Shown: positions 3,972-25,378, numbered from the stretch's first letter. The stretch: 64,000 nucleotides of DNA from an uncultured Chloroflexia bacterium (GCA_963773405.1 CAVZAQ010000013.1:19758-83757), one strand, 5' to 3'. Numbers and translations are program-made. Notes: generated from the letters alone by a model not told the origin.

Positions 3972-4067
3972 TGAGCCGACCGGGGACCGATGCCGTCACG
4001 TGCTCCCGCCGGCTGAAGAACTGACCCCGGCCCTGAGGCCGGGGTCAGCGTCTGCGGGGTGCGAGCT

Positions 4068-4376: not shown

Positions 4377-4610
4377 ATACCTCCCTGCCCGGGCTCGGTC
4401 TCGCCATTGGCATTCGGCACGTGTCTCGGGCGACCGCGGCAAAGGGACACGTGTCGTGGAACGGCTGCAAATTCCAGCCACCCCGCGCAGTTCGCGGATG
4501 ATGCGGTAGCGGGGGGCGCCCGCATGTCAAGTGGGCGACAGGCGCCCTGCCTCAGCCCTGGGCGGCCGAGACCAGCGAATAGAAGCTCACCACCGCGACC
4601 GTGAGGGCCG

Positions 4611-5045
4611 CTAGATGCCCACCGTCTCGCAGCCGTCTCCCCAGACGAAGTCCGGAGTGGGTTGAGGACTGTCACTGAGCGCAAGGCTGCTGCACGTCAG
4701 TCGGTGCCATCCGCCGCCGTACGCGTCCTGCGTGGCGTCAATGAAGATCTCGACGCTGCTGGGTCCCAACACTCGAAGCGTCACCGTGAACGGGTCGCCT
4801 TCGACGGTGGGCCGTGTGCTCACGAACTCCGCTTCTCGGCCCGCCTGGTAGGCCTCCCAGAAGCATTGCCGTGCCTCGATGTTCCACTGGCCACCTCCCC
4901 TGGTGTCTTCGACGCCACACGAGGGGAGCTGCGACCGCGTGAGGTAGCTCAGCGGCGGCGCGAACAGCAGGACGCCTCCGACGACGAGCACCAGCGCAAC
5001 GACCGCGATCGCCACCGGTTTCACGTGCGAGTCCATCTCCACCAC
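4611..5045 (-). CDS. Membrane-anchored hypothetical protein
   Basis: N-terminal TM helix VAIAVVALVLVVGGVLLF followed by a Cys-containing extracytoplasmic domain. Confidence 0.4.
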   Translation of the reverse strand: MVEMDSHVKPVAIAVVALVLVVGGVLLFAPPLSYLTRSQLPSCGVEDTRGGGQWNIEARQCFWEAYQAGREAEFVSTRPTVEGDPFTVTLRVLGPSSVEIFIDATQDAYGGGWHRLTCSSLALSDSPQPTPDFVWGDGCETVGI

Positions 5046-5096
5046 AGGATACGGTCAGCTAACGGCGCGGTAAGCGTTGGTGCGCATGGTGCGAGC

Positions 5097-5330
5097 GTGC
5101 CCACGCTATACGAGGAAGGCGGCTTTGCCTTCCGGTTCAGGTCAACCGATGGCGGCGAGCCTCCGCACGTCCACGTCGAAGGCCAGGGCGGCGCCGCCAA
5201 GTACTGGCTTGCCCCGATCAGAATGGCCAAGAGCCGGGGATACAATCGGCGTCAGCTGGCACGGATCGACGCAATCGTCCGCGGCCACGAGCACGACTTC
5301 GAGGAGAGGTGGCATGAGTACTTCGGCTAG
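5097..5330 (+). CDS. DUF4160 family protein
   Basis: GTG start; MPTLYEEGGFAFRFRSTDGGEPPHVHVEGQGGAAKYWL... matches the DUF4160 hallmark (MPT...F.F..ND..PPH.HV). 17-nt overlap with the downstream DUF2442 gene. Confidence 0.65.
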   Translation: MPTLYEEGGFAFRFRSTDGGEPPHVHVEGQGGAAKYWLAPIRMAKSRGYNRRQLARIDAIVRGHEHDFEERWHEYFG

Positions 5331-5610
5331 GAAGCTTGAGTTCCAGCCCTCGGTGGCCACCTCCGTTCGCGTCGACCGCAGCCGCTTCTACGTCCAGCTC
5401 GCCGATGGCCGCGAGATCAGCGCCCCGCTTGACCGATTCCCGCGCCTGCGGGCCGCAACTCCCGAGCAACTCGCGAAGTGCGAGATCACGGCCTTCGGAA
5501 CAGCGATCCGCTGGCCGCAGCTCGACGAGGACATTGGCGTCGCGGCGCTCCTCGGTGTTCCCGAAGACGACCTCGAGGCCGCCGCCGGCTTCGAGCACGA
5601 CGAGCGCTGA
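5314..5610 (+). CDS. DUF2442 family protein (partner of DUF4160)
   Basis: MSTSARKLEFQPSVATSVRVDRSRFYVQLADGREISAPLDRFPRLRAATPEQLAKCEITAFGTAIRWPQLDEDIGVAALLG: canonical DUF2442 pattern (...V..DG......FP.L..AT..Q...WE....G..I.WP.LDEDI). Confidence 0.65.
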   Translation: MSTSARKLEFQPSVATSVRVDRSRFYVQLADGREISAPLDRFPRLRAATPEQLAKCEITAFGTAIRWPQLDEDIGVAALLGVPEDDLEAAAGFEHDER

Positions 5611-5838
5611 ATCCGACGCCGAACAGCAGCTCGTAGCGGTCGGTGGGTGTCGAGATCGCGGTGCTCGACACCCCGGGGCTCCTACTCCCAGATCTCGTCC
5701 CGTGAAGCAGACAGAATCGCCCTGCCGCCAAGTGCCGTCGTTCCCTCATCTCCCCCTCCTCCTTGTGCCGTGCGCACGACAGCCCGGCGGCTCGTGTCGC
5801 ATCGTCGGCGGTGATTCGCAGCGCACCCGCGCGTCGCC

Positions 5839-7053
5839 TCATTCCGCCAGGGCGATGACCTCGGCGACCCGGACGGGGTGCGAGAACCCCTTCATCGACA
5901 TCTCCCCGGCATCGGCCACCTTGACGTGCCCGCCCATCCGGGCCCGGGTGCGTGTGCTGATGAGGATCGCCCCGTCCCCGGCTTCCGCACACAGCCGCGC
6001 TGCCAGGTTCACGACACTCCCCACCGCGGCGTAGTCGACGCGGCCCTCGAAGCCAATGCGCCCCATGGTGGCGTACCCGGTGGCGATGCCCACGCCGAAG
6101 CCCAGCGCATGGCCCATCAGCCGCCAGCCCTCGGCGAGGGCCGCGACATCGGTTCGCAGGGCGAGTGCCATGCGCACCGCGCGTTCGGCATGTTCCGGCT
6201 GCTCCACCGGGTCGTTGAAGAAGACCATCACCCCATCGCCGGTGAAGCGCTCCAACGTGCCTCCCACCTCCGTGATGCCCCGCCCCAGCACGCCGTGGTA
6301 CTCCCGGAGCACCTGCATGACATCTTCGGGCTCGGCCGCTTCGCTGAAGGCCGTGAAGCCACGCAGGTCGCAGAAGACGACCGTGATCTCGCGCCGATGT
6401 CCCGCCAGCAGCCGCTCCCCCTCCGGGCTCGAGACCAGCGCGGCAACCTGCGGCGACAGGAATCGGGCCAGCTCCTTGCGCTGCCGCTCGATGGTGCCCA
6501 CCAGCTGGGTCGTCGTCACCGCGATCACCGCCTGGTCGGCGAACTGCTGCAGGACCTGGATCTGGTCGTCGCGGAAGGGCGTCGGCCTGTCTCGCCAGAC
6601 CGTCACCACCCCGACCACCTCTTCCTCGCGCATCATGGGCACGCCGACCATGGCGCGGAAGCCGCCCAGCTCCTTTGCCTCCGGGTAGTCGTACTCCGGG
6701 TCCAGCTCCACGTCCGGAATGTGCACCGCACGCCGTTCGACGGCGGTCCGGCCCACCAGCGTCCCGCGCGCCGGCAGGATGGGGTGGGCCAGGTTGAACT
6801 CGATGATGGCTTCCGATGAGCCGATGGCGGCCGCGTGCCGGTAGCGACCGTCCTCGCCGCGGAGGTAGATGAACCCACGCTCTGCATGACAGAGCCGGGT
6901 GGCGTGGCTCAGGATCGTGGCCAGCACCGCCTCGAGGTCGAACGGCGCCCCGCCCAGCGAGCGCAGGACGTCGCCGAGGGCTTCCTGGTAGGCGGCTGAA
7001 CCCTCGTCGGGCGACGGGCTTGCCATCGCCGACGAGTCTACGCGATGCGCCAT
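5839..7053 (-). CDS. GAF domain + class III adenylate/guanylate cyclase
   Basis: ORF 5839..7185(-). GAF-like N-terminal part; C-terminal cyclase homology domain (ITVVFCDLRGFTAFSE...LERFTGDGVMVFFNDP...GIATGYATMGRIGFEGRVDYAAVGSVVNLAARL). Start taken at MAHRV (7053) on RBS grounds; 7026 is an alternative. Confidence 0.7.
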   Translation of the reverse strand: MAHRVDSSAMASPSPDEGSAAYQEALGDVLRSLGGAPFDLEAVLATILSHATRLCHAERGFIYLRGEDGRYRHAAAIGSSEAIIEFNLAHPILPARGTLVGRTAVERRAVHIPDVELDPEYDYPEAKELGGFRAMVGVPMMREEEVVGVVTVWRDRPTPFRDDQIQVLQQFADQAVIAVTTTQLVGTIERQRKELARFLSPQVAALVSSPEGERLLAGHRREITVVFCDLRGFTAFSEAAEPEDVMQVLREYHGVLGRGITEVGGTLERFTGDGVMVFFNDPVEQPEHAERAVRMALALRTDVAALAEGWRLMGHALGFGVGIATGYATMGRIGFEGRVDYAAVGSVVNLAARLCAEAGDGAILISTRTRARMGGHVKVADAGEMSMKGFSHPVRVAEVIALAE

Positions 7054-7096
7054 GACACGGACCTTCGACGGAGCGGGTGGGGCGTACGATCGGGCG

Positions 7097-8527
7097 ATGC
7101 GCATCCTTGTCGTGGGCGCCAGCGGATACATCGGTGGCCGCCTCGCGTCCCTGCTTTCGTCGCTCGGGCATGGGCTCGTGCTCATGAGCCGCGACGCGCG
7201 ACCGCTCGCGGCACGGTTCCCGGACGCCGTGGTGGTGGGCGCAGATCTCCTCGAGGCTTCGTCGCTTGGCCGGGCCCTGGAAGGTGTCGAGGTCGCCTAC
7301 TACCTTGCCCACTCGATGGGTTCGGGGGAACGCGGCTTCGCCGATCGCGACAGGACGGCGGCGCGGAACTTCGCCGCGGCGGCCTCGGAGGCAGGCGTCC
7401 GGCGCATCGTGTACCTGGGTGGGCTCGGCGACGAGACCGCTGACCTCTCGGCTCACCTGGCGAGCCGCCAGCAGACCGGGAAGGAGCTCGCCTCGCACGG
7501 CGTGCCCGTCACCGAGTTCCGGGCCGCGATCATCATCGGCTCCGGCAGCGCGTCCTTCGAGATCCTTCGCCATCTCACCGAGCGGCTGCCGATCATGATC
7601 ACGCCGCGCTGGGTTGGCACCCGTTGCCAGCCAATCGGGATCCGGGATGCGCTCGACTACCTCGTTGGCGCGCTCGACCATCCGGAGATCACCGGCGTCG
7701 TCGAGATCGGCGGGCCGGACATCCTCTCGTACGGCGACATGATGCGAACCTACGCCCGGCTTCGCGGCCTCCGGCGCCTCATGATCCCGGTGCCCGTTTT
7801 GACACCGCGCCTCAGCTCGTACTGGGTCAGTCTCGTCTCTCCCGTCCCGGCCGGGATCGCACGGCCCCTCATCGAGGGTCTGCGGAACGAGGTCATCGTC
7901 CGCGATCCGCGCCCGGCCACGGCCTTCGGCCTCCAGCCCGCGTCGTACGAGACCGCGCTCAGGCACGCCATCGACCGAACCGATCGCCATGCCGTGGAAT
8001 CGACCTGGTTCGACTCGCTCGATACGCCCGGCCGCGAGGAGCTCCCGACCGTGAGCTCACACGAGGGGATGATCATCGAGCGACGTCACCAGATCGTCCC
8101 GGTGCCGGCGGATCGCCTGTTCGCCGAGGTCGAGCGGCTGGGCGGCTCGGCCGGCTGGCCCTACGCCAACTTCCTGTGGCGGACTCGCGGCCTCCTCGAT
8201 CGACTTGTCGGCGGGGTCGGCATGCGGCTTGGGCGCCGATCGCCAACCGAGCTGCGGGTCGGCGACGCCCTCGACTTCTGGCGTGTGGAGGCCGTGGAGC
8301 GCCCAACCTTGCTGCGTCTCCGCGCGGAGATGCGTGTCCCCGGCCGTGCCTGGCTCCAGTACGAGGTGACCGCGACCTCGCGGGGCAGCCGCCTGGAGCA
8401 AACCGCCTTCTTCGAGCCGAAAGGCCTGCCCGGCCTGGCGTACTGGTATCTCCTCTATCCCGTCCACGGCCTGATCTTCCGCGGCACGGTCCGCCGCCTT
8501 GCCGAACGAGCCCTGAGCTCTCCCTAG
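7097..8527 (+). CDS. NmrA-like NAD(P)-binding (atypical SDR) domain fused to DUF2867 domain protein
   Basis: MRILVVGASGYIGGRL Rossmann motif. The C-terminal half (WFDSLDTPGREELPT...LWRTRGLLDRLVGGVGMRLGRR...WRVEAVERP) resembles DUF2867. Confidence 0.7.
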   Translation: MRILVVGASGYIGGRLASLLSSLGHGLVLMSRDARPLAARFPDAVVVGADLLEASSLGRALEGVEVAYYLAHSMGSGERGFADRDRTAARNFAAAASEAGVRRIVYLGGLGDETADLSAHLASRQQTGKELASHGVPVTEFRAAIIIGSGSASFEILRHLTERLPIMITPRWVGTRCQPIGIRDALDYLVGALDHPEITGVVEIGGPDILSYGDMMRTYARLRGLRRLMIPVPVLTPRLSSYWVSLVSPVPAGIARPLIEGLRNEVIVRDPRPATAFGLQPASYETALRHAIDRTDRHAVESTWFDSLDTPGREELPTVSSHEGMIIERRHQIVPVPADRLFAEVERLGGSAGWPYANFLWRTRGLLDRLVGGVGMRLGRRSPTELRVGDALDFWRVEAVERPTLLRLRAEMRVPGRAWLQYEVTATSRGSRLEQTAFFEPKGLPGLAYWYLLYPVHGLIFRGTVRRLAERALSSP

Positions 8528-8806
8528 GAGCAGCCCCGATCCTGCGGCGTCGGCGGACGAGCACAAAGAGCAGCAGGTCCGCCCGCCTTGCTCATCGCGC
8601 GACAGGAACGTGCTCGCCAGGTACCGCGGGATCGGGGTGACCTCGCCGCTGCTCGCCGCGGTCGACGCTCGGAGCGCGGCACGGTGGAACGTGCACGGCG
8701 CGAGCCCGTCCCGGGATGCGGACCTCGGGCCAGCGCGAGATTGACCCGCGGTCGTGGCCTCGATCAGGGCATCCGGCGACGCCATAGCCGGCGCGGCACC
8801 TTCGTC

Positions 8807-9047
8807 ATGACCCGCGGCTTGAAGATTTGCTGCGGCGGGACATGCCTTCCGCTTCCGTGCCAATGACCGCAGCGAACCACCGCACGTCCACGTCGAGGGC
8901 AACGGCGGACGGGCAAAGTTCTGGCTGCCCGATGCAGGACTGGTCCGGAGCGAGGGATACAATCGTCGGCAGTTGGCGGCTATCCAGATCATCGTGGCGG
9001 AGAACGCGGAACGCTGGCTGAGGCAATGGCATGACTTCTTCAACTAG
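8807..9047 (+). pseudogene. DUF4160 family protein (second copy), N-terminus disrupted by a 1-nt frameshift near 8824
   Basis: ATG at 8807 gives MTRGLK in one frame. The DUF4160 body (FAAAGHAFRFRANDRSEPPHVHVEGNGGRAKFWLPDAG...WHDFFN) is in the -1 frame and preceded by an in-frame TGA at 8820. Ends at 9047 with the same 17-nt overlap to its DUF2442 partner as copy 1. Confidence 0.5.
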
Positions 9048-9339
9048 ACCCCTGCTGACCCGTCCCGCTCTCGCGGCCGATGTCCGCGTCACCGATGCAC
9101 AGCTCACCGTGACCCTGACCGATGGGCGCGAGATCAGCATCCCGCTGGCCGAGTTCCCCCGGCTGGTGGCCGCCACCCCCGCACAGCGCGCGAACTGGGA
9201 GATCGTCGATCACCGCACGGCCATCACCTGGCCCGACATCGACGAGGAGATCGGCATGGCTGGTCTGCTCGGTGTCTCCGAAACGGCCGTCGAGGAGGCC
9301 GCCGGCTTCACCATCCTCAACCGCGAACCTGCGCGGTAG
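9031..9339 (+). CDS. DUF2442 family protein (second copy)
   Basis: MTSSTRPLLTRPALAADVRVTDAQLTVTLTDGREISIPLAEFPRLVAATPAQRANWEIVDHRTAITWPDIDEEIGMAGLLG: ~50% identical to the protein at 5314..5610. Confidence 0.65.
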   Translation: MTSSTRPLLTRPALAADVRVTDAQLTVTLTDGREISIPLAEFPRLVAATPAQRANWEIVDHRTAITWPDIDEEIGMAGLLGVSETAVEEAAGFTILNREPAR

Positions 9340-9386
9340 CCGACCGTCTGTCACGGCGCCACGCCGGGCCAGGTCACCGGTACGCG

Positions 9387-9941
9387 TTACGAAGCACCGC
9401 TGTGCACGCCGGGGAACACGGCGAGGATCTCTCCGGTCGCGTCGTCGATGACGAGCGTGCCCTGGGTGGACGGAGCGAGGCAGGCGTACGCCGCCGATGA
9501 CGGGTTGGCGCCCACCTCCTGCGAGAAGTTGCTCGACCAGGCATGGACGCGAAGGTTTAGGTAATCCCCCGCGCCCCTCGTGACCCAGACAATGGCATCC
9601 GACGTCTCGTGCGGGATGCATGTGTCCAGGATCCACGCGTCCGACGCGCGCACCGCCCATACCTGCCCGATGTTCGCGGGGATGTGGAGCTCGGGGGCTG
9701 CGATCTGCGGCGTCTGCTGCGCCAGGTAGTCGCGCGACAGCGACACGGCATCGGCGGCGGTCAGCCGAGGCTGAAGGCCAGGCGCCACCGTCGTGGTGTA
9801 CGGCCCGTTCGTCGGCTCGGCACTCGGCCCGATGAGCCCGCACCCAGCGATCAAGAAGCTGAGCGCGCAGACAGCAGTTGCGGCGAGCCGGCGCACATTC
9901 CCTGCGCTGGCGTCCTGGTCGGCGGGCGGCCGTGGATTCAT
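9387..9941 (-). CDS. Hypothetical lipoprotein
   Basis: Lipobox LSFLIAGCGL after a positively charged N-region. Start uncertain (9941 or 9980). Confidence 0.4.
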   Translation of the reverse strand: MNPRPPADQDASAGNVRRLAATAVCALSFLIAGCGLIGPSAEPTNGPYTTTVAPGLQPRLTAADAVSLSRDYLAQQTPQIAAPELHIPANIGQVWAVRASDAWILDTCIPHETSDAIVWVTRGAGDYLNLRVHAWSSNFSQEVGANPSSAAYACLAPSTQGTLVIDDATGEILAVFPGVHSGAS

Positions 9942-9976
9942 ACCGAGGCCCGCGAACGCGTCATGGTTGTGGCGCA

Positions 9977-10411
9977 TCACACCGCTCCAGATGGGCAGAA
10001 CGGGCTCGGTGGGAATGCATCTTCATCCACCTCCGCGATCTTCCCGGCCGCATCGATGACGAACCACCGTGTAACGGGCTGGATGCCGCCGCTGGGCGGT
10101 GGTGCGGACGGATCCACGGCCGGCGGAGTGGGCACCGCGAAGGTCAGGTCGAGCCTGTCGGTGGGCGTGGTAATGCTGACGGTCGACATCCCCCGACTGA
10201 ACCCTCGCGCGTACTCCCTGCACGGAGGAATCCCCTCAGTCCCCGATCGACCGGCATAGGTATCCGACGAATCCCACCGGAACGAGCCGGTCACACTGCC
10301 CACGTTGGCAATTCGGATCAGGCCGTCTGCCGGCGGTGGCCCGCAGCCCGCAACGAGAACAACCACGATGGCCGCAGCAATCCACCCGTGACGCCGACTC
10401 TCGATGCGCAT
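9977..10411 (-). CDS. Hypothetical lipoprotein
   Basis: From MRIESRRHGWIAAAIVVVLVAGCGPPP: signal peptide + lipobox. Confidence 0.4.
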   Translation of the reverse strand: MRIESRRHGWIAAAIVVVLVAGCGPPPADGLIRIANVGSVTGSFRWDSSDTYAGRSGTEGIPPCREYARGFSRGMSTVSITTPTDRLDLTFAVPTPPAVDPSAPPPSGGIQPVTRWFVIDAAGKIAEVDEDAFPPSPFCPSGAV

Positions 10412-10506
10412 TCCCAGACCCCCAGCACATGCGCTTCCCGGCAAATCCTACTTGAACGACGCGCTACCCTACCGTCGAGCCTGCCCAGCAAGGGGGACCA
10501 AAGCCC

Positions 10507-10656
10507 ATGCCGGATACGACGGCCGGACGCGCTGTCGCCTTGCTTGTTGCCGCCCTCGTGCTGGCTGTCGTAGTCATAGTGGTGTCGAACACCGTGGCTA
10601 CCCCGCAGACATACGTCTTCGATACTGCTCCCGAGCAGATCCTGCATTCGCCATGA
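10507..10656 (+). CDS. Small single-TM peptide (49 aa) translationally coupled to the DUF2075 gene
   Basis: ATG at 10507 preceded by AGGGGGA 9 nt upstream. Encodes MPDTTAGRAVALLVAALVLAVVVIVVSNTVATPQTYVFDTAPEQILHSP. Its TGA overlaps the ATG of the next gene (gccATGAag). Below the ORF-track length cutoff. Confidence 0.35.
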   Translation: MPDTTAGRAVALLVAALVLAVVVIVVSNTVATPQTYVFDTAPEQILHSP

Positions 10657-12527
10657 AGCTCTACGCGGGGACGACCGAGCAGTTCCTAAGGGACGCGATG
10701 ACGCACCGCATCGCGGAGAAGCTGGCGGTCGAGTACAAGGCAGAGCTCGGCCACAAGCCCGGCGCGGCCGAGTACAACTCCTGGCAGAACTCCCTGACCA
10801 GTCTGGGCTGGCTCGTCGACCATGCGGGACTCAAGGACCACGGCATCATCCTCGAGTACCAGCTGCCCCTGAGCTCCCTGCGCCTTGACGCCATGCTCAC
10901 CGGCCACCAGAACACCGCCACCGGCCCGCGCAACGCGGTGATCATCGAGCTCAAGCAGTGGACCGATGTCGCCGCCAGCAACGTCCCGGAATGCGTCGAG
11001 ACGTTCGTGGGTCACGCCACGCGACGCGTCCTCCACCCCAGCGTCCAGGTGGGCCGATACCAGCAGTACCTGCTCGACACCCACACGGCGTTCTACGAAG
11101 GCGGCATCGGCCTGGCGGCTGTCAGCTATGTCCACAACATGGACCACGCCACCGGTGAGCTCTTCGCCCCACGGCACGCGGACGCCCTGAAGGCCAATCC
11201 CCTCTTCACCGGCGACCTGGTCGACGACCTGGCGGACTACCTCCTCGAGCGCCTGGACGGGGGCGACGGCAACACCGTCCTGGCCGAGGTCCTCGCCTCC
11301 AAGTACCGCCCGTCCAAGAAGCTCCTCGACCACACCTACCAGATGGTCAAGGGCCAGACCGAGTTCGTGCTCCTGGACGAGCAGCTGGTGGTCTTCAACT
11401 CCGTCCTGGCCGCCGCCCGCGAGAGCTTCTCCGAGACGAAGAAGGGCGTCATGCTCGTCAAGGGCGGACCGGGCACCGGCAAGAGCGTCATCGCCCTCAA
11501 TCTGGTGGGCGAGCTGGCGAAGCAGGGCTTCAACACCCAGCATGCGACGGGATCCAAGGCGTTCACGGAGAACGTCCGTCGCGTCGTTGGCCCGCGAGCC
11601 TCCACCCAGTTCAAGTACTTCAACTCGTACGGGCCGGCGGAGACCAACGACATCGACGTCCTGATCTGCGACGAGGCGCATCGGCTCCGCGAGACAAGCG
11701 CCAGCCGCTACACGCCAAAGGCGAAGAGGACGGACCTGCCGCAGGTGGACGAGCTGATCCGGGCCGCGAAGGTAAGCGTCTTCTTCATCGACGACCTGCA
11801 GGGCGTGCGCCCCAACGAGGTCGGGACCACCGACCTCATCGCGGAAGCGGCCCTGCGCAATGGCGCGGCCATTGACGTCTTCGAGCTGGAGACCCAGTTC
11901 CGCTGCGCCGGCTCGGAGGCGTTCGTCAGCTGGGTCGACAACACCCTTGGCCTGGCGGAGACCGCCAACCCGGTCTGGGAGGGCAACGAGAACTTCGACT
12001 TCCGCATCGTCGACTCCGTGGAGCAGCTGGACGCGCTGATCCGCACCCGGGCCGCCGAGGGCCATTCCGCGCGCCTGACCGCCGGCTTCTGCTGGCGCTG
12101 GAGCAACCCAGAGCCCGATGGCACCCTCGTCAACGACGTGAAGATCGGCTCCTGGGAGATGCCGTGGAATGCCCGGCCCGATGCCGGCCGCCTCGCCCCC
12201 GACGTTCCCCCGTCCATCTACTGGGCATCGAATCCCAACGGGATCAACCAAGTGGGATGCATCTACACGGCCCAAGGATTCGAGTTCGACTACGTCGGAG
12301 TGATCGTTGGTCCAGACCTGCGGTGGGACGGGACTGCCGAGTGGGTCGGCGATCAAAGCGAGTCCCGGGATCCAGGTCTGCGCGGCAGCGGAGAGCGCCT
12401 TACCCATCTGATCCAGAGCGCCTACAGGGTCTTGCTAACCCGAGGGATGAAAGGCTGCTACGTCTACGTCATTGACGACGAGACGCACCGCCATCTGGAA
12501 TCAAGAGTGTCGGGCGGCCGGACATAG
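10653..12527 (+). CDS. DUF2075 family Schlafen-like P-loop ATPase/helicase-like protein
   Basis: Starts at internal Met MKLYAGTTEQFLRDAM... of ORF 10404..12527. N-terminal nuclease-like/Schlafen-like region (IIELKQW), Walker A (LVKGGPGTGKSVIALNL), Walker B (VLICDEAH), and C-terminal CIYTAQGFEFDYVGVIVG...RVLLTRGMKGCYVY typical of DUF2075 (PF09848). Confidence 0.75.
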   Translation: MKLYAGTTEQFLRDAMTHRIAEKLAVEYKAELGHKPGAAEYNSWQNSLTSLGWLVDHAGLKDHGIILEYQLPLSSLRLDAMLTGHQNTATGPRNAVIIELKQWTDVAASNVPECVETFVGHATRRVLHPSVQVGRYQQYLLDTHTAFYEGGIGLAAVSYVHNMDHATGELFAPRHADALKANPLFTGDLVDDLADYLLERLDGGDGNTVLAEVLASKYRPSKKLLDHTYQMVKGQTEFVLLDEQLVVFNSVLAAARESFSETKKGVMLVKGGPGTGKSVIALNLVGELAKQGFNTQHATGSKAFTENVRRVVGPRASTQFKYFNSYGPAETNDIDVLICDEAHRLRETSASRYTPKAKRTDLPQVDELIRAAKVSVFFIDDLQGVRPNEVGTTDLIAEAALRNGAAIDVFELETQFRCAGSEAFVSWVDNTLGLAETANPVWEGNENFDFRIVDSVEQLDALIRTRAAEGHSARLTAGFCWRWSNPEPDGTLVNDVKIGSWEMPWNARPDAGRLAPDVPPSIYWASNPNGINQVGCIYTAQGFEFDYVGVIVGPDLRWDGTAEWVGDQSESRDPGLRGSGERLTHLIQSAYRVLLTRGMKGCYVYVIDDETHRHLESRVSGGRT

Positions 12528-12540
12528 AGGGAGGAGCACA

Positions 12541-13176
12541 GTGACGACACAGGCTGGCTACTGTCCGAATTGCGGCAAGCAGCGCGAGGGGGCGATGCGT
12601 TTCTGCTCGTCCTGCGGCCATGACTTCTGGGCTGCGGCCGCCGGCGCTGCGTCGGCGCCGATGGCCACTTCGACGGCACCACCTCCGGCACCGGTTGGAG
12701 CTCCTCCGCAAGCGAGCGAGGCTTCCGGCGTACCGCTTCCCACGATCCTCGTCCTCGGTGGCGGCGTCCTGCTCGTCGTGGGTTCGTTTCTCCCGTGGGC
12801 AACTGCGTCGACCGTGTTTGGCTCCCTCTCCCGGAGCGGCGTAGATGGCGGCGACGGATGGATCACGACCATCATCGGCGCGCTCATCCTGCTCTTCGGC
12901 GCAATGACGCTGAGACAGGCGAGCCGCGGCCTGAACCTGCTTATCGCCGTCGGCGCTGCGATCGCATTCCTGATCTTCGTCTTCGACCTCGTCGACGTAA
13001 ACAACCGGATCGCCAGCATCGAGGCCGAAGGGCAGGGCCTGGCGCTCGGCACGGTGGGCTTCGGGCTCTGGCTCGTCGGCCTCGGCGCAATCGTCGCGTT
13101 CTTCGCGAGCTTCTTCCGGCGCAGGTGGCACCAGCAGCCAGCGACACGCAATGTCGGAACCACCGAAGTTCGATGA
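12541..13176 (+). CDS. Zinc-ribbon domain membrane protein (4 predicted TM helices)
   Basis: GTG start with GGAGGAG RBS. CPNCGKQ...CSSCGH zinc ribbon, Ala/Pro-rich linker, then 4 hydrophobic helices. Begins 14 nt after the DUF2075 stop. Confidence 0.6.
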   Translation: MTTQAGYCPNCGKQREGAMRFCSSCGHDFWAAAAGAASAPMATSTAPPPAPVGAPPQASEASGVPLPTILVLGGGVLLVVGSFLPWATASTVFGSLSRSGVDGGDGWITTIIGALILLFGAMTLRQASRGLNLLIAVGAAIAFLIFVFDLVDVNNRIASIEAEGQGLALGTVGFGLWLVGLGAIVAFFASFFRRRWHQQPATRNVGTTEVR

Positions 13177-13179
13177 AGG

Positions 13180-13692
13180 GTGCCGGCTGGCGGTGGCATC
13201 CCGCCCGAGCGCCACTGGGCCAGTGATCCCGCGGGCATCAACCAGGCGGGTTGCATCTACACCGCCCAGGGCTTCGAGCTCGATTACCTGGGCGTCATCA
13301 TCGGCCGCGACCTGCGCTGGGATCCGTCATCCGAGGAGTGGATCGGCGATCCTTCCGAGTCCTTCGACTCGATCGTCAAGCGCTCCGGCGACCGGTTCAC
13401 CGACCTCGTCAAGCGCACCTACCGCGTCCTCCTCACCCGCGGCATGAAGGGCTGCTACGTGTACGGGGCGGACCCGGGGACGCGGGAACACATCACCTTG
13501 CGGACGACTGGCGGAACGGACGCCGATGAGGCTCCGGGAGAGTCAGACCCTGTGTACGAAATCCCAAGCTGCGATCGGGTCGGGGGATGCACCGAGTGGT
13601 GGGCGTCTATGAGAGCGACGCCTGATCAGGAGACCTACCGGGACAGGTGCCTCAGCGGATGGTCAGCGGGTCGGTTCCAGCGTTCTTGTTGA
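13180..13692 (+). pseudogene. C-terminal fragment (~105 aa) of a second DUF2075 gene (gene remnant)
   Basis: ERHWASDPAGINQAGCIYTAQGFELDYLGVIIGRDLRWDPSSEEWIGDP...RVLLTRGMKGCYVYGADP aligns at ~65% identity to residues ~590-700 of the full DUF2075 protein, but lacks the N-terminal 80% of the gene. Its third-position GC is higher than in the full-length copy. Confidence 0.55.
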
Positions 13693-13921
13693 GGTAGCGC
13701 ATCCGCACTCGGGCGGCTTGGATCACGCCACGCAGCAGCGAGCCGGCGACGACGACCCCCACAGCCAGCGTCGCGATCCCCCTCACCCAGTCAATCGCCA
13801 GCCAAGTGTTCAGCACGGCGGCAACGAACAGGCCGGCGACCAAGCTCACCAAAACGCCGAGGGCCGCGCCCAGAATGACGGGGACGGGTCCTGGCCCACC
13901 AGATCGATCTTCTCGGGTCAT
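13652..13921 (-). CDS. Small hypothetical membrane protein
   Basis: 89-aa ORF with two hydrophobic segments; no family recognised; could be spurious. Confidence 0.25.
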   Translation of the reverse strand: MTREDRSGGPGPVPVILGAALGVLVSLVAGLFVAAVLNTWLAIDWVRGIATLAVGVVVAGSLLRGVIQAARVRMRYLNKNAGTDPLTIR

Positions 13922-14039
13922 GATTGTCTCCTGATCGAGCGCCCGCCCTCGTTGGTGCGGAGCAGAGACGGCCTCCAGTCACCGGAGCCTGTACGGCCCC
14001 GATTGGCCTGTCAAGGGCCGAAGGACGCCATCAACGTGT

Positions 14040-14930
14040 GCCGCTGCTCCTGCGGCGCTGGAGGCCAGTACGTTCGCTCTACAGCCGCCCGAGCATGTAG
14101 CCGAACGAGGCCACCTCGAGCCACGCTTTCGCGCTCGTCGCGGTTCCCTCGAAACAACGGGACAGGCGCCGCCAGCGTCCGAGCTCGGCGAAGGCTCGCT
14201 CGACGCGCCAGAGCGGCGCGATCGGGGTGAAGTTGCCCTTGCCCTTGCGGGCCGGCGGTCTGGGAATGCCAGGCTGGGTCTTGGGCGGGACCTTGATGTC
14301 GAGCGCCAGATGGCGATGGTCGGCCAGGTTCCGCAGCCCGCGGTAGCCGCGATCGGCGACGATCGCCTGAACGCGCGGGAGGTCGTTGAGGTTGGCGCGA
14401 AGGAGGTCGCGGCCGGCCGACACGTCGTGTGGTCGCGCCGAATCGACTCTCGCCGCGATCGGCAGGCCGAGGATCTCGACCAGGATGCTGCGCTTGGCGC
14501 CGATCGTGCGCCCGCCGCGCCCGCCGTTGTCGTGGAACGTCGGTCCGGCGCGTCCACCCTTCACCGTCTGGGCGTCGATCATCACCATCGACGGGACGGC
14601 ATCGCGGTTGTGCGCAACGCGGATCCGGCGCGCCAGGCGGGTCGTCGCCAAGGCCCAGACGCCATTGGCTCGCCATCGCCGCCATTGCTGCCAGGCGGCA
14701 CCCCACGGGCCGTATCGCTCCGGCAGGTAGCGCCACTGGCAGCCCGTCCTGGCCAGGAAGAGCATCGCCTCGACCATCTGGCGTCGGGGAACTTGGGCTG
14801 GCGCGCCTCGTCGGCCAAACGGATCGAACAGGTCAGCGACGAGCGCCCATTGCGGATCGGTCAGCTCGTAGATCGCGGCCATCGGAAGCAGCCTGGCATC
14901 ACGGCGCGACAGGTTCTATGGCACGAAAGA
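14040..14930. mobile_element. IS5-family insertion sequence (boundaries approximate; inverted repeats not resolved)
   Basis: Contains a single intact DDE transposase gene; element ends could not be defined by eye. Confidence 0.45.
14079..14882 (-). CDS. IS5-family (DDE_Tnp_1 with N-terminal DUF4096-like) transposase
   Basis: MAAIYELTDPQWALVADLF...GCQWRYLPERYGPW...MIDAQTVKGGRAG...VADRGY...: canonical IS5/IS4-group transposase motifs. Confidence 0.8.
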   Translation of the reverse strand: MAAIYELTDPQWALVADLFDPFGRRGAPAQVPRRQMVEAMLFLARTGCQWRYLPERYGPWGAAWQQWRRWRANGVWALATTRLARRIRVAHNRDAVPSMVMIDAQTVKGGRAGPTFHDNGGRGGRTIGAKRSILVEILGLPIAARVDSARPHDVSAGRDLLRANLNDLPRVQAIVADRGYRGLRNLADHRHLALDIKVPPKTQPGIPRPPARKGKGNFTPIAPLWRVERAFAELGRWRRLSRCFEGTATSAKAWLEVASFGYMLGRL

Positions 14931-15013
14931 CCCGGTCTGATCGGGAACTTTCATACACAGGGTCTCAGATCCCGCGGATGCTCTTCCTAATTCTCCGCTC
15001 GGCTGCGAAGCAG

Positions 15014-15328
15014 TTAACGACCGCTTTCGCTCCTAATCAGCGCCCCGGCCTTCGCCGAAGCGGGGGCCACGGTAGGCTTCTTAGCCTTCTTGCGCTCTGC
15101 ATAGATGTTCTGCGAAACCGTCGCGGCGGTTGTCTGCAGCAACGCGGCGATCTCTTGGTTGGTGAACCCAATCAGCGCCAGCCTTAGACACTTGGCCGCC
15201 TGCGTCGTCCCTTCAGGCATTCCGTCCAACATCCCGAACGCGGCAATCTTGTCCTGCATGGTTGCTCCGCCGCGCCGCGGAGTCACTTCTTCGAGTTCGT
15301 CCTGTCCGTTCCGCTCTCGGTTCGGCAT
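15014..15328 (-). CDS. Small GerE/LuxR-type (sigma-70 region-4-like) HTH protein, paralog A
   Basis: AAKCLRLALIGFTNQEIAALLQTTAATVSQNIY matches the GerE-type HTH consensus. AGGAG RBS 9 nt upstream of the ATG; starts 16 nt after the TIR-like gene stop. Confidence 0.55.
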   Translation of the reverse strand: MPNRERNGQDELEEVTPRRGGATMQDKIAAFGMLDGMPEGTTQAAKCLRLALIGFTNQEIAALLQTTAATVSQNIYAERKKAKKPTVAPASAKAGALIRSESGR

Positions 15329-15343
15329 CAGTCGCGCTCCTAC

Positions 15344-16183
15344 CTAGAGGTTGAAATCGCCAAGAGTCAGCCAATCCGTTCCGTCGGTGTCAACGGCGCA
15401 CCCGGCATTCGACAGCTTGGTCGCCAGCTCGCGGCGGCTTGCGGCGAGATTCGTGAGACGCGTGATGTGCTTCCCGCCGACATCGGAAAAGGGCTTAACA
15501 GCTCCGATCTGCACTAGGACAGTCGAATCCGCGTTACGGCCCACGGCCATGCCTGCTTCGAAGAGCACATTGGGTCGTGCTTGGCGAACCGTCGCGTGTT
15601 CATAAGCCTCATCGCTCGGCTTCCAGAATTCTCTTGCAAGGACAACATCGTCGTCTGGCGTGAGAAGCACAACGACAGCGGCAGCTTCACGAAACGCGGC
15701 GGTAAGCACGTCGTCCAAGGACGGGGTGCCTTTGCCGGTTGCCGCCAGAAGCTTGTTCCACTCCAGTGGTTCGAGGCCGAGTGTTCGCAGGAAGATCGCA
15801 AGTTCGTCGCGCATCTTCGTGTTGCGGCCATGCACGATGAAGACTTTCTTGCCTTTGGTCGTCCGAGGCCCGACTGTCTTCGCCGCTTTCGAGGCTTTGC
15901 GTCTCCGCGGCACCGTTAGCGATTGCGCTTCTGCTCGCTGCGGCGATGTCCCAGTGGAGGAGCGCCCTGCGCCTTGGCGCACGGCCCGCAACTGCGCAAG
16001 GTCATCTTCGCTGTTGACATGGTTGCGAATGCTGATTCCGCTTTCGGCAGCAAGGGCGAGGAGAGCGAGCCGGCGGGGCAGAAGGGTGTCGAGCTCCTTC
16101 TCGCGAATCAGCCGCTGCAGCTGGCGCTCGCTGATATCACGCTTCGTCTGGACTTGCGCACGAAGCGCCTTCTCGTCTGCCAC
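15344..16183 (-). CDS. TIR-like nucleotide-binding domain protein (COG4271 / Cap12-PycTIR-type) with uncharacterised N-terminal region
   Basis: GTG start. C-terminal ~150 aa: KKVFIVHGRNTKMRDELAIFLRTLGLEPLEWNK...AAVVVLLTPDD...RQARPNVLFEAGMAVG, matching the FIVHG...LGLEP...LFE(A/L)G pattern of TIR-like effector domains, including the putative catalytic Glu. N-terminal ~110 aa is helical/charged with a low-complexity linker. Confidence 0.6.
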   Translation of the reverse strand: MADEKALRAQVQTKRDISERQLQRLIREKELDTLLPRRLALLALAAESGISIRNHVNSEDDLAQLRAVRQGAGRSSTGTSPQRAEAQSLTVPRRRKASKAAKTVGPRTTKGKKVFIVHGRNTKMRDELAIFLRTLGLEPLEWNKLLAATGKGTPSLDDVLTAAFREAAAVVVLLTPDDDVVLAREFWKPSDEAYEHATVRQARPNVLFEAGMAVGRNADSTVLVQIGAVKPFSDVGGKHITRLTNLAASRRELATKLSNAGCAVDTDGTDWLTLGDFNL

Positions 16184-16195
16184 CGTTGGCTAGCC

Positions 16196-16414
16196 TCACC
16201 CCTCGGGGCCGGCTCGCTTCGCCGCCTGCGACAGGAATCCGCGAACGGAGCCCTCCGAGGATCCCGTTAGCGCTGAGATCTCCTTGTTTGAGAATCCGGC
16301 GCTGTGCAACAACTTCGCCGCGTCACCCTTCGAAAAGTCCTTGATAGCCGACAGTGCCAGAACGTTCGCGACCTTCCTCAACTGAACGGCGACATCCGCT
16401 TCGTCGGCGGCCAT
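16196..16414 (-). CDS. Small GerE/LuxR-type HTH protein, paralog B
   Basis: Starts at internal Met MAADEADVAVQL... with AAGGAG RBS 8 nt upstream. DAAKLLHSAGFSNKEISALTGSSEGSVRGFL HTH. Confidence 0.55.
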   Translation of the reverse strand: MAADEADVAVQLRKVANVLALSAIKDFSKGDAAKLLHSAGFSNKEISALTGSSEGSVRGFLSQAAKRAGPEG

Positions 16415-16416
16415 CG

Positions 16417-16683
16417 CTACTTCTCCTTCCCGTTTGCGGGAGACGCCTTTTGGGCGGACGCCTTGACGATGTGGCGCAACGAATCGTCCGTGGTCCCAAG
16501 AAGGGCGGCAGCGTCTGCACGGGTAAGCCCCAGATTGTTCATCAGGAAGCGCGCCTGCTCGGCGAGTCCCTTCTCCCGCAATCCCGCGTGGTGCAGACAC
16601 AGGAACGCTTGGGACTTGGCCGCTACAAGGGACCAGTCAGTGACGGTAAGAGGATCGCGGGGCACTTCGCGTTCTCCAGGCAC
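16417..16683 (-). CDS. Small GerE/LuxR-type HTH protein, paralog C
   Basis: FLMNNLGLTRADAAALLGTTDDSLRHIV HTH. Its stop is 2 nt upstream of the paralog B start. Confidence 0.5.
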   Translation of the reverse strand: MPGEREVPRDPLTVTDWSLVAAKSQAFLCLHHAGLREKGLAEQARFLMNNLGLTRADAAALLGTTDDSLRHIVKASAQKASPANGKEK

Positions 16684-16743
16684 GGGATTTGGCCGGACAC
16701 AAATGCTATCAAATGCTTGTGCCTCTAGGCGGCACTATTCCCT

Positions 16744-16762
16744 TTGACTCAAGTCAATTGAC
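16744..16762. promoter_or_regulatory. AT-rich promoter/operator candidate containing perfect palindrome GTCAATTGAC and TTGAC/GTCAA inverted repeats, upstream of the HTH-HTH-TIR-HTH operon
   Basis: ttgactcaaGTCAATTGACtgtctcaag lies in a locally AT-rich gap 60-90 nt upstream of the first operon gene. TTGACT -35-like hexamers occur on both strands. Confidence 0.35.
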
Positions 16763-17002
16763 TGTCTCAAGGGACGCCTCCCCCGCCTCCGCCCAGGGCG
16801 TGGGGCGGGTGCCAGATCGGTCCTAATCGCTGCGCCAGTAACGCCGAAGGTCCGATGCGCCAGGCCACGGGCGCGCGCCCTGTTCAGCTCGAGTTCTGCC
16901 AGATCGACTGCAGCACCACCACGCCACAATCCAAGATCAGCACCCCGCCCACTTGACGAGCGCCACAGCTTGGATAAACTGGCTACTGTGAGCGCGCACG
17001 TT

Positions 17003-17620
17003 ATGAATGCCAGCATCGAGAGCGGCCCAAACCGCCCGCAGTCGCCCCTCACGGCCAGTCCGACCTCCAGACCTCGATCAATCGCGCACCGCCTACGCGC
17101 CAGCTGGCCCGGTCTGCGACCGGACGCCAATCTCACCCGTGAGCGCGCCGCTGGGTTGCTCTTCGCGGGTATCTCCAGCCTGGTGGTCGCCGGCCTGGCT
17201 GCCGCCCTCGGCCACCCCGATCGTGTCGTCTCCGATCTCGTCTTACGCGGGCAGTCGCTCGATCTGACGGTCGCCGGGCTTCCCGCGGCCTTGGTGGCGG
17301 CCTGGTTGACCGCTCCCTATGCCGCCAGGCGGAGCGTGAGCCTCCGGCGCGGGGCAGTGACCGTGGCGCTCGTCGTGGTGGTGTTGACAGACCTCATCGC
17401 CGCGGTCTATTTCACCGCTCCGATGCTGTGGAGTCCACCCTTCGATCCCGGCGCATTCGTTACCTTCCCGGTGATACTTGGCTCCGCCGCCCTGTGGGGC
17501 GCGCTGCTCTACGGTCTACCTGGCTTTGTCCTGGCGCTGTCTGCCGGCCTGCCCGGCTTGCTACTGATCCGCCGCCTCCCACTCCTTTCGCCTACGGCTC
17601 CAGACGGCTCCCGCGAATGA
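17003..17620 (+). CDS. Hypothetical polytopic membrane protein
   Basis: ORF 16970..17620 with 5-6 hydrophobic helices. ATGA overlap with the next gene. Confidence 0.4.
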   Translation: MNASIESGPNRPQSPLTASPTSRPRSIAHRLRASWPGLRPDANLTRERAAGLLFAGISSLVVAGLAAALGHPDRVVSDLVLRGQSLDLTVAGLPAALVAAWLTAPYAARRSVSLRRGAVTVALVVVVLTDLIAAVYFTAPMLWSPPFDPGAFVTFPVILGSAALWGALLYGLPGFVLALSAGLPGLLLIRRLPLLSPTAPDGSRE

Positions 17621-18084
17621 CAGGGCTGGAGCACCTAACCTCGACGGAGGCGGATCGCCGCGCCGCTGTTGGGCGAGCGGCCAAGCGCTACGCGTTCGTT
17701 AGCGCGATAAGCGTCGTGCTGGTGAGTCTCTGGGTGGCGATGGCCTGGGGAGGACCGGCCGCCATCGGCTTCTACCTGGGGCCGATCGCCATCGGCTACC
17801 TGGCAATCACCGCGCCGCCGTTTGCAGCCACGGTCGCTGCCTGGCAGTTATCGCCCTGGGTCCACCGCACTGTCGCGCGAACCTTGGTCGCGGTCCTGGC
17901 CGTGACCGCCTGGGCCACCGTGTTGTTGCTGGTCAGCGCCGTCACCGGCTTCCTGTCACCCGATCCACCGTTGACGATCGCCCGTGCGGTCTTCGGTATC
18001 GCCTTCCTGGCACTGCTGACCTTCGTGCCCGTCAGTCTGAGCCTGCCGTGGGGCTGGCGTCGAGAACCGCGCGCTGCCCAATGA
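17617..18084 (+). CDS. Hypothetical polytopic membrane protein
   Basis: From internal Met MTGLEHLTSTEADRR...; 4 hydrophobic helices; translationally coupled to the preceding gene. Confidence 0.45.
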   Translation: MTGLEHLTSTEADRRAAVGRAAKRYAFVSAISVVLVSLWVAMAWGGPAAIGFYLGPIAIGYLAITAPPFAATVAAWQLSPWVHRTVARTLVAVLAVTAWATVLLLVSAVTGFLSPDPPLTIARAVFGIAFLALLTFVPVSLSLPWGWRREPRAAQ

Positions 18085-18306
18085 TCCGGACCCGAGCAGC
18101 TGGCGTCGTCTTTTTTCTCTGTGGCGTCGTGCCCGGAGGCCGCGTCTCCATACCGCCACACCGCGCGACAGGGGAGCCAGCATTAGCTCAAGGTCCCAAC
18201 CCTAGGGGTCGAGGACAAAGCCGCACGCACCACAGTGGTTCACTAGCCACGTCGGTGGCGGAGGGCCAGATGGCCCTTCCCCTTCTTGCAGGCGGCGGTA
18301 GCATAC

Positions 18307-18321
18307 CTAGACGTACTAGGT
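18307..18321. promoter_or_regulatory. Inverted repeat CCTAG-acgta-CTAGG just upstream of padR start; candidate PadR operator
   Basis: cctagacgtactagg read directly, 9 nt upstream of the ATG at 18330. Confidence 0.3.
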
Positions 18322-18329
18322 ACGACGAA

Positions 18330-18650
18330 ATGCCGCCAAGACTCGACCGCGGTGACTACGCCCTCCTCCTGCTCGGCCTCCTCGGCGAGCGCGAGATGTA
18401 CGGGTATGAGCTGGTCGCCGCGCTGCGTGATCGGTCCAAGGCGGTGATCGACCTGCCCGAGGGGACCGTCTATCCGGCGCTGCGCCGCCTGGAGCGCGAA
18501 GGATTGGTGGCCGGGCGCTGGGTCGAGGTTGCCGGCGGTCCACGGCGCCGCTACTACAGCCTCACCATCGCCGGCGAGCGAGCGTTGGCCGATGGCCGCA
18601 AGGCGTGGCGCCGCTTCGCGGCCGCTGCCGATGGAGTGCTGGGCCGGTGA
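18330..18650 (+). CDS. PadR family transcriptional regulator
   Basis: MPPRLDRGDYALLLLGLLGEREMYGYELVAALRD...GTVYPALRRLEREGLVAGRW: PadR winged-helix signature. Confidence 0.75.
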   Translation: MPPRLDRGDYALLLLGLLGEREMYGYELVAALRDRSKAVIDLPEGTVYPALRRLEREGLVAGRWVEVAGGPRRRYYSLTIAGERALADGRKAWRRFAAAADGVLGR

Positions 18651-21732: not shown

Positions 21733-21813
21733 TGCGTCCGCGTCACCCATTCGGCCCTCCCCTCACCCCTTCAGAGGCGCTGACCGAACGATACGGGTGA
21801 TTCCGTGGACTCG

Positions 21814-25356: not shown

Positions 25357-25378
25357 CCACGTTCTCCATGGTCGGAAT

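Follow-up and report, generated by a model that had tools for sequence, protein, structure and literature searches.

The Nhi protein of Staphylococcus epidermidis (SERP2475) combines a PD-(D/E)xK nuclease with a helicase that overlaps DUF2075, it works as a single protein against phage, and its reported structural neighbors are Dda, Upf1, and Dna2, of the SF1B type (Bari et al., bioRxiv 10.1101/776245). A Nhi-like protein has the same layout yet shares no sequence identity with Nhi (Millman et al., bioRxiv 10.1101/2022.05.11.491447). The gene analyzed here also encodes a DUF2075 protein. It is found in a stretch of 64,000 nucleotides (nt) from an uncultured Chloroflexia bacterium (GCA_963773405.1 CAVZAQ010000013.1:19758-83757), and this whole stretch, which is GC-rich (~65-75%), is called the window below. 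Four features follow one another on its plus strand: an open reading frame (ORF) of 49 amino acids, the DUF2075 gene of 624 amino acids, a gene for a zinc-ribbon membrane protein of 211 amino acids (ZnTM), and a remnant of a DUF2075 3' end. A preliminary description of the sequence had listed these four features, all of which are present, and had read them as a horizontally acquired defense cassette beside a fragment of a second DUF2075 gene.

Genes followed by truncated 3' ends are known from other loci. In Rhs/CDI polymorphic toxin loci a full gene is followed by truncated 3' copies that start just inside a conserved stretch. Each orphan copy is preceded by cargo that came with the newer end, and the copies accumulate by serial displacement through recombination. 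Some integrative elements, such as e14 at icd, bring a new 3' end for the gene that they target and leave the original end behind as a pseudogene fragment.

Comparison of the window with its relatives points to a different reading from that of the preliminary description. The locus probably consists of a resident Nhi-like gene with a recombined 3' end, and ZnTM and the small ORF are its lineage-restricted neighbors. The loci compared from the clade of the window are L001-L009, L081-L086, L090, and L091. Among them L001, from a related Chloroflexia metagenome-assembled genome (MAG), is the closest locus, and L081 is an independent assembly from a close relative. The wider DUF2075 set comprises the best 80 of 580 relatives, with one genome per species; it covers 50-92% identity and many bacterial and archaeal phyla.

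Results

Mosaic structure of the DUF2075 gene

The two parts of the DUF2075 gene differ in their relationship to the L001 ortholog. Residues 1-511 are 97.7% identical to it, while residues 512-624 are 63.6% identical, so that the resident share of the gene is ~82%. In intervals of 100 nt the nucleotide identity to L001 is 0.90-0.99 until ~12134, and then it falls to 0.81, 0.77, 0.56, and 0.63. The left flank is common to both loci, with window positions 9201-10597 being 94.6% identical to L001 1-1398. The GC content at third codon positions (GC3) is 0.93 in resident codons 1-511, 0.90 in the remnant, and 0.91-0.96 in nrdJ, but only 0.74 in the last 113 codons and 0.79 in ZnTM. In six related MAGs (L002-L007) the DUF2075 gene is found 0.7-5.4 kb from the 3' end of nrdJ, and this synteny shows that the gene is resident in the Chloroflexia lineage. 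The preliminary description had the whole cassette acquired horizontally. This does not hold for codons 1-511, given their identity to L001, the shared left flank, and their GC3, and import is limited to the last 113 codons and the ZnTM gene. Similarly, the contrast in GC3 that it had drawn between remnant and intact gene is real for the last 113 codons but not for codons 1-511.

Both junctions of the imported segment can be located. The left junction lies just past GATGCCGGCCGCCT, at ~12193 in the alignment to L001, and beyond it the gene no longer resembles its L001 ortholog. The junction keeps the left arm of a resident palindrome, GATGCCGGCCGCC, together with its central T. The right junction is TGCCGGC (13181-13187), 4 nt beyond the ZnTM stop codon. 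Between the junctions, the replacement DUF2075 3' end (codons ~514-624) is followed after a 13-nt spacer by the ZnTM gene, and 4 more nt complete the block. The comparison indicates that a block of ~987 nt, carrying a foreign DUF2075 3' end and ZnTM, was inserted and displaced the native 3' end. Displacement of a resident DUF2075 3' end by recombination had been proposed beforehand, along with a comparison of syntenic relatives, and L001 both bears out the proposal and reveals which part was replaced. A close donor of the imported end was not found among the top 120 homologs, the 80 loci, and L082. The best match was 69% over at least 98 amino acids, compared to 96% for the gene body, and shorter partial matches reach 79%.

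The remnant corresponds to positions 259-353 of PF09848 (E = 1.8e-25). Compared with the intact gene of L001 at its 3' end, it is 83.5% identical in amino acids and 89.5% identical in nucleotides, and it is 94% identical in nucleotides to an orphan 3' end that L001 itself possesses. These values identify it as part of the same gene, not of a different paralog as had been supposed. It carries changes where the family is nearly invariant, such as V534A. The remnant is thus best seen as the gene's own former 3' end, pushed downstream and now a nonfunctional orphan. Its homology to the intact gene end of the window was recognized correctly in the preliminary description, with an identity estimated at ~65% and measured at 61% over 103 amino acids. 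The ZnTM gene does directly follow the DUF2075 stop codon, at a distance of 13 nt and not 14. Judging from this 61% match of the two DUF2075 ends and from the Pfam assignments, the description of the features was right apart from such small numbers.

Age of the event

The insertion is found in more than one assembly. L081 is syntenic with the window (9950-13229 at 92% and 20053-25413 at 96%), and it carries the small ORF (96% amino acid identity), the DUF2075 gene (95%), and ZnTM (85%). Its right junction is identical to that of the window, and its remnant has an internal deletion of 192 nt. Because the right junction is shared, the event predates the split between the window and L081. An assembly duplication, which had been named as a possible refutation, is ruled out by this junction and by comparable displaced ends in L001 and L090. 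Between the window and L081 there are 34 synonymous and 14 nonsynonymous codon changes in the imported C-terminus, and 36 synonymous and 31 nonsynonymous changes in ZnTM. These numbers are consistent with purifying selection on both.

Architecture of the nuclease-helicase

The 624-amino acid protein has the features of a nuclease joined to a helicase. Residues 265-608 match the Pfam family SLFN-g3_helicase (PF09848) over profile positions 2-354 of 354, and the motifs GGPGTGKS (271-278) and DEAH (340-343) are invariant in an alignment of 35 sequences. D79, E99, L100, and K101 are invariant among the same 35 homologs and in a second alignment. The N-terminus has a restriction-endonuclease-like fold, and it is predicted to be a nuclease. 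An AlphaFold2 model of the protein has a predicted local distance difference test score of 83. Its top Foldseek matches in the PDB are SLFN11, which is the best (E = 1.2e-10), Dda, Dna2, RecD2, Upf1, and nsp13. A single-sequence search of the PDB with the protein found nothing, and a profile search gave only P-loop-level matches to HelD and SLFN11. A total of 7810 DUF2075 homologs were found, and identities above 50% extend across bacterial and archaeal phyla.

The layout resembles that of Nhi and the Nhi-like protein. All are single polypeptides in which a PD-(D/E)xK nuclease at the N-terminus is joined to a helicase that overlaps DUF2075/PF09848. The window protein shares with Nhi the SF1B-type neighbors Dda, Upf1, and Dna2, and the gene is also in defense-island surroundings. 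On the other hand, its similarity to the PADLOC models of Nhi and AbiO is weak and confined to the P-loop region (for AbiO, E = 5.7e-10; for the two models together, residues ~212-418 of the protein and profile positions ~160-330 of ~470). Also in contrast to Nhi, the window subfamily, with proteins of ~620 amino acids, stays above 50% identity across bacteria and archaea, and its usual neighbor is a MazG-like gene. A match to PADLOC PDC-S41 is restricted to residues 534-606. Because the Nhi, AbiO, and PDC-S41 matches are all partial, the wording used here is Nhi-like by architecture and not member of the Nhi sequence family. As far as its sequence and predicted structure tell, the DUF2075 gene is a single-polypeptide nuclease-helicase of the Nhi/Nhi-like kind. 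By analogy with Nhi, the protein would most likely recognize and degrade phage replication intermediates, and ATP-driven translocation would feed the DNA to the nuclease domain.

The protein is related to group III Schlafen proteins (SLFN5/11/13/14) in its PF09848 helicase domain but not in its N-terminus. A Schlafen core (AlbA_2-type) domain was not detected, as there is no Pfam match before residue 250 of the 624-amino acid protein. The N-terminus had been called Schlafen-like, and this label is replaced by that of a restriction-endonuclease type of fold.

The surroundings agree with a role in defense. A CAP12/PCTIR-type TIR gene 2.8 kb downstream places the locus in a defense-island context. 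In L001 the C-terminal part of Lamassu LmuB (PADLOC E = 5e-92) is encoded at 12804-13757 on the minus strand, ~5 kb downstream of the DUF2075 gene, so the L001 locus is also in a defense island. The assignment of the gene to a defense-associated kind is upheld by its Nhi/Nhi-like layout of nuclease and DUF2075 helicase, by the nearby TIR protein, and by LmuB at L001.

Neighboring genes in relatives

ZnTM and the small ORF are limited to close relatives of the window. Tblastn searches with both proteins gave no match in any of the 80 DUF2075 loci. The full trio is found only in the close relative L081, while L082 has the DUF2075 gene with ZnTM and L090 has the small ORF with the DUF2075 gene. 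The downstream genes of the 80 loci are heterogeneous. Relatives with bodies more than 90% identical to that of the window protein also have other downstream genes, encoding proteins of 255 amino acids (L001), of 61 and 114 amino acids (L090), and MJECL33/32 (L091). Across the loci compared, ZnTM and the small ORF are lineage-restricted neighbors and not defining parts of a three-gene system. The recurrence of the three-gene combination, which the preliminary description had left to be checked, is therefore contradicted, and the common partner of the DUF2075 gene is a different one.

This partner encodes a MazG-like pyrophosphohydrolase (PF12643, ~110-125 amino acids). Clustering of flanking ORFs found it adjacent to the DUF2075 gene in 57 of the 80 loci, immediately upstream in 53 and downstream in 4. 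Examples are L017:5653-5982 and L043:7869-8234, and the gene is seen among L010-L080 in bacterial and archaeal phyla. The DUF2075 proteins of this module belong to the same subfamily as the window protein and are 50-57% identical to it, but the window and its relatives in the Chloroflexota clade do not have the MazG-like gene (no match in the 64-kb window, L001-L009, or L081-L086). To our knowledge the module of a MazG-like gene and a DUF2075 gene has no name, and the literature searched contained no paper on MazG together with Nhi-like or Schlafen proteins.

Two other genes recur beside DUF2075. HNH_2 endonuclease genes (~310 amino acids, PADLOC 'HNH' E = 1.4e-20) are near it in 15 of the 80 loci, sometimes as tandem pairs; examples are L010:4619-5569, L061:2685-3614, L090:3617-5464, and L091:2446-3387. 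In the Chloroflexota clade a protein of 452-454 amino acids with the N-terminus MLKDEKWPVARLIPITS and no Pfam or PADLOC match is found at L091:4643-6997, at L001:1597-3924 and 8846-9964, and in L006, L082, and L003. In L091 it is in an apparent operon with a YccF-like membrane protein of 145 amino acids and a protein of 171 amino acids, directly upstream of DUF2075. In L001 those three genes end in an N-terminal DUF2075 fragment of 105 amino acids (3921-4238).

ZnTM belongs to a rare family, with 7 proteins found in 5.8 billion. The gene has a GTG start codon behind GAGGGAGGAG, following the TAG of the DUF2075 gene. The protein has a zinc ribbon (CPNC..CSSC) at its N-terminus, followed by a linker rich in Ala and Pro and by four predicted transmembrane helices, and the four hydrophobic segments are conserved across the family. 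A loop has the family motif GSFLPW.TAST.FGS.SRSG.D.GGDGW. The distinct ZnTM loci are the window, L081, L082, L083/L084 (with one protein), L085, and L086. In the window, L081, and L082 the neighbor of ZnTM is a full DUF2075 gene, in L083, L084, and L086 there are only fragments beside it, and in L085 it has no DUF2075 neighbor. In L083 and L084 it comes after a GGDEF-like gene. The DUF2075 C-terminus that precedes ZnTM in L082 is of a common type, 65% identical to the imported end of the window and 76-80% identical to other types. Co-adaptation of the C-terminus and ZnTM was considered and is not supported, as the C-terminal type does not co-vary with ZnTM. Nor does the analysis support the suggested abortive-infection layout of a sensor ATPase with a membrane effector. 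The absence of DUF2075 at L085, the GGDEF-like neighbor in L083 and L084, and the common C-terminus in L082 indicate that ZnTM is tied to the locus but not demonstrably to helicase function.

The evidence on the small ORF is mixed. Its ATG is preceded at 8 nt by AGGGGGA, and its TGA overlaps the ATG of the DUF2075 gene (ATGA, 10653-10656). Homologs that agree with it in start, hydrophobic core, and overlapping stop are found in L081 (96% amino acid identity) and L090, and a diverged form is found twice in L001. The L081 and L090 versions have 49 amino acids, and that of L090 keeps the N-terminus MPxTTAGRAxAL. Differences between the window and L090 are distributed over the three codon positions as 24/18/29, which is mildly coding-like. 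The GC3 of 0.69 is atypical for the genome and speaks against a real gene, and the comparison with L081, with no synonymous and 2 nonsynonymous changes, is unfavorable or ambiguous. The ORF may encode a genuine small membrane protein, or it may be a leader peptide. Its conservation, on which the preliminary description had made its reading depend, extends to L081, L090, and L001 but not to the 80 wider loci. Window positions 10445-10652, comprising intergenic DNA and the small ORF, are 98.5% identical to L081, which exceeds the 94.6-96.6% of the adjacent coding DNA. Third positions are unchanged in this segment, and the cause could be nucleotide-level constraint or recent exchange.

Displaced 3' ends in the clade

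Displacement of DUF2075 3' ends has occurred repeatedly in the clade. Orphan 3' ends with unrelated sequence upstream are found in L001, L090, L083 (two), L084 (two, one of which is common to L083), and L086 (two). Of the eight distinct orphans, seven start between residues 500 and 522, within the segment W-x-M-P-W-N-A-K/R-x-D-A-G-R-L-A-x-G-I-P. Around the palindrome, at least seven independent displaced ends begin within ~23 codons of one another, with their 5' ends spread over ~60 nt. The clustering of orphan starts around the palindrome suggests a recombination hot spot. Left crossovers on the other hand vary, and L090 departs from the resident type near amino acid 440. The orphan of L090 is truncated at its 3' end. 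The 90%-identity cluster of the window protein has 24 members with a common gene body and at least three C-terminal types. The last ~20 residues, past LLTRGMKGCY, are hypervariable. They differ completely between proteins with more than 90% identity in the body, and there are at least nine versions of this tail.

No inverted repeat in the L001 gene is stronger than the one at the junction region (GATGCCGGCCGCC / GGCGGACGGCATC). This repeat has arms of 13 nt that are 92% complementary and a loop of 1 nt. The window gene keeps the L001-like left arm of this palindrome, while L081 does not. Several clade members have a version with 8-bp repeats and an 11-nt spacer, which distant homologs lack. 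Pattern scans of metagenomes gave no match for the palindrome with 13-nt arms and three matches for that with 8-nt arms, all in intact genes without orphans.

A broader survey of orphans was attempted and rejected. With the remnant as query against 1.84 billion representative proteins, there were many matches of 100-300 amino acids with N-termini peaking at ~amino acid 497. Three that were inspected (L087-L089) proved to be longer or interrupted genes that had been started at an internal GTG ('VKIG'), and the peak is thus a gene-calling artifact. Two otherwise intact DUF2075 genes have an in-frame TAG, at L001 7459-7461 (codon ~487) and at L087 ~306-308 (codon ~479). Both are just upstream of the conserved internal GTG ('VKIG'), and they may reflect pseudogenes, sequencing errors, or something else.

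Features and surroundings of the locus

The coordinates of the features are collected in Table 1. An ORF of 89 amino acids with two hydrophobic segments (13652-13921, minus strand) overlaps the nonhomologous tail of the remnant ORF; it has no match in Pfam, PADLOC, or NCBIfam, and tblastn gave none in any fetched locus. Rfam had no match on 9900-14100. A sigma-70 scan did not find a promoter, and terminator-like matches were unconvincing.

Table 1. Positions of the features in the window.
Feature	Position	Strand	Basis
Small ORF, 49 amino acids, one hydrophobic segment	10507-10656	+	ORF reading, comparison with relatives
Nhi-like nuclease-helicase gene (DUF2075/SLFN-g3 helicase), 624 amino acids, recombinant mosaic	10653-12527	+	Pfam PF09848 E = 1.5e-85
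N-terminal PD-(D/E)xK nuclease-like domain, ~amino acids 1-235	10653-11357	+	Invariant residues in alignments
Putative catalytic residues D79; E99-L-K101	10887-10889; 10947-10955	+	Alignments
SF1B helicase/DUF2075 domain, amino acids 265-608	11445-12476	+	Pfam, alignment, Foldseek
Walker A; DEAH	11463-11486; 11670-11681	+	35-sequence alignment
Left recombination junction	12180-12193	+	Alignment to L001, identity drop
Imported block, ~987 nt	12194-13180	+	GC3, loss of L001 similarity
ZnTM gene, 211 amino acids, GTG start	12541-13176	+	Zn_Ribbon_1 E = 5.7e-6
Displaced original DUF2075 3' end, codons ~510-608, in spurious-looking ORF 13180-13692	13181-13476	+	PF09848, L001 identity
IS4/IS5-family transposase; context, outside the cassette	14079-14882	-	Pfam DUF4096 and DDE_Tnp_1
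CAP12/PCTIR-type TIR-domain protein (PADLOC candidate PDC-S35)	15344-16183	-	PF10137 E = 2.3e-25; PDC-S35 E = 1.8e-20
nrdJ, class II ribonucleotide reductase gene	25510-28600	-	

Variable segments lie on both sides of the locus. Window positions 13465-20053 (6.6 kb) are missing from the syntenic L081, which has 1.4 kb there. They include the IS4/IS5 transposase, the CAP12/PCTIR TIR protein, small helix-turn-helix-like ORFs, membrane proteins, and a PadR-like regulator. On the other side, window positions 3971-9950 (6 kb) correspond to L081 3174-4222 (1 kb). The window segment includes a DUF2442 protein and an NAD-dependent epimerase-like ORF, and its L081 counterpart adjoins PIN/MazE toxin-antitoxin genes.

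Discussion

In the ancestor that the window and L081 have in common, a diverged DUF2075 3' end took the place of the last ~113 codons in the resident gene. ZnTM entered with this end in one block of ~1 kb, and the original end was pushed downstream. The mosaic could have arisen by repair of a break, one that was probably associated with the palindrome and repaired from a foreign homologous template. The upstream side of the break may have been resolved by homologous recombination, and its downstream side by an illegitimate, microhomology-level joint at or next to the near-perfect palindrome of the resident allele. Such break repair at the palindrome would explain why orphan starts are fixed while left crossovers vary. 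Given the repeated events in the clade, the 3' end of the gene would act as a recombination anchor and as the left border of a variable island.

Several observations weigh against a resident Nhi-like gene with incidental neighbors. The match to the PADLOC Nhi model is weak and partial (E = 6e-11), covering profile positions 180-330 of 470, which is the P-loop region only. ZnTM adjoins a DUF2075 gene or fragment in six of its seven distinct loci, and in L082 there is a 4-nt overlap between the DUF2075 stop and the ZnTM start, so that functional coupling is possible. Four diverged versions of the small ORF agree in start, frame, hydrophobic core, and ATGA overlap, and for this reason the ORF may be a real co-translated partner. 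The 8-bp repeat follows in part from the GC-rich codons for D-A-G...G-I. Finally, these long-read MAGs contain indel errors, and small details of the junctions may be unreliable. Such errors are suggested by nrdJ, which is frameshifted in the window (split across frames, for example at 26901-26916), L004, and L006. Frameshifts had been considered as a sign of orphan decay, and they were given less weight since this housekeeping gene is itself frameshifted.

Some of these observations are what a dedicated defense or abortive-infection system of three genes would produce, in which the DUF2075 ATPase senses and the small transmembrane peptide and ZnTM act as membrane effectors or regulators. The spacing is operon-like, with the ATGA overlap and a 13-nt gap containing a strong ribosome-binding site. 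The same trio is found in L081, and in L082 ZnTM directly follows DUF2075 even though the ZnTM proteins are only 54% identical. The association with DUF2075 genes or fragments, the purifying selection on ZnTM and the imported C-terminus, and the defense-island-like surroundings fit as well. We nevertheless consider such a system improbable. Neither partner is found in the 80 DUF2075 loci across phyla, and bodies that are more than 90% identical carry other downstream genes in L001, L090, and L091. ZnTM follows a GGDEF-like gene and not DUF2075 in L083 and L084, and it persists beside mere DUF2075 fragments in these two loci and in L086. The C-terminal type is independent of ZnTM, ZnTM came as recombination cargo, and Nhi works as a lone protein. 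The order of parts could also mean that the ~1-kb block is what remains of a site-specific integrative element that targeted the DUF2075 3' end and brought a replacement end, so that the orphan marks attR. As in elements of the e14 type, the 5' part of the gene is followed by a foreign 3' end, cargo, and the original 3' end. The clustering of orphan starts within ~23 codons across several loci and the inverted repeat at the site agree with this. It is very improbable all the same, as the segments that separate the intact end from the orphan in the window, L081, L090, and L001 encode no recognizable integrase or recombinase. In contrast to e14-type elements, there is no shared att core. The orphan 5' ends are distributed over ~60 nt, the left crossovers vary (L090 near amino acid 440), and no flanking direct repeat is conserved beyond the 7-nt TGCCGGC.

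The orphans can also be compared with silent cassettes of the pilS/vls style, from which gene conversion would diversify the C-terminus. Several partial 3' copies downstream of one expressed gene (L083, L084, and L086) and the different C-terminal types of close relatives are reminiscent of such systems, and the left palindrome arm that is L001-like in the window and not in L081 could reflect local gene conversion. However, there are just 1-3 fragments per locus with unrelated genes between them. The fragments span helicase motifs V and VI, which are conserved, and no variable recognition surface, they have changed at near-invariant residues, and they are losing sequence (the 192-nt deletion in L081 and the 3' truncation in L090). 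The chance that they are silent cassettes is accordingly very slim. The likeness to Rhs/CDI orphans is one of form, with truncated 3' copies downstream in the window, L081, L001, L090, L083, L084, and L086. As in those loci, the copies retain part of the conserved region, start just inside it, and follow cargo that came with the newer end. It differs in that the displaced piece contains conserved helicase motifs V and VI instead of a variable toxin domain, and in that there is no sign that the following gene is a cognate immunity gene or partner, the L082 C-terminus being of a common type.

The recombined 3' end of the resident gene may be given a more far-reaching interpretation, which we put forward tentatively and think rather unlikely as a whole. 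The 3' end would be a site of cassette capture, at which breaks at the palindrome (codons 509-518) are repaired from foreign DUF2075 templates and the downstream genes of the donor are imported. The island would be built by serial displacement, as a toxin-free analog of Rhs/CDI orphan arrays, and the nuclease-helicase would be modulated by genuine membrane partners, the small ORF and ZnTM, the latter being nearly confined to this slot.

The Nhi-like nuclease-helicase type was already known, and what is new here is the lineage-specific cargo and the recombination-prone 3' end. A three-gene cassette read from one genome can mislead, and in this case the relatives reduce it to one Nhi-like gene and recombination cargo. 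The DUF2075 subfamily has a very wide distribution, with a MazG-like gene as its usual partner. No description of this pairing was found in the literature searched, which makes it a candidate for experimental testing. The hot-spot pattern would bear on the assembly of defense islands. If it is true in a larger survey, a defense gene would itself be the homology anchor for the exchange of neighboring island content.

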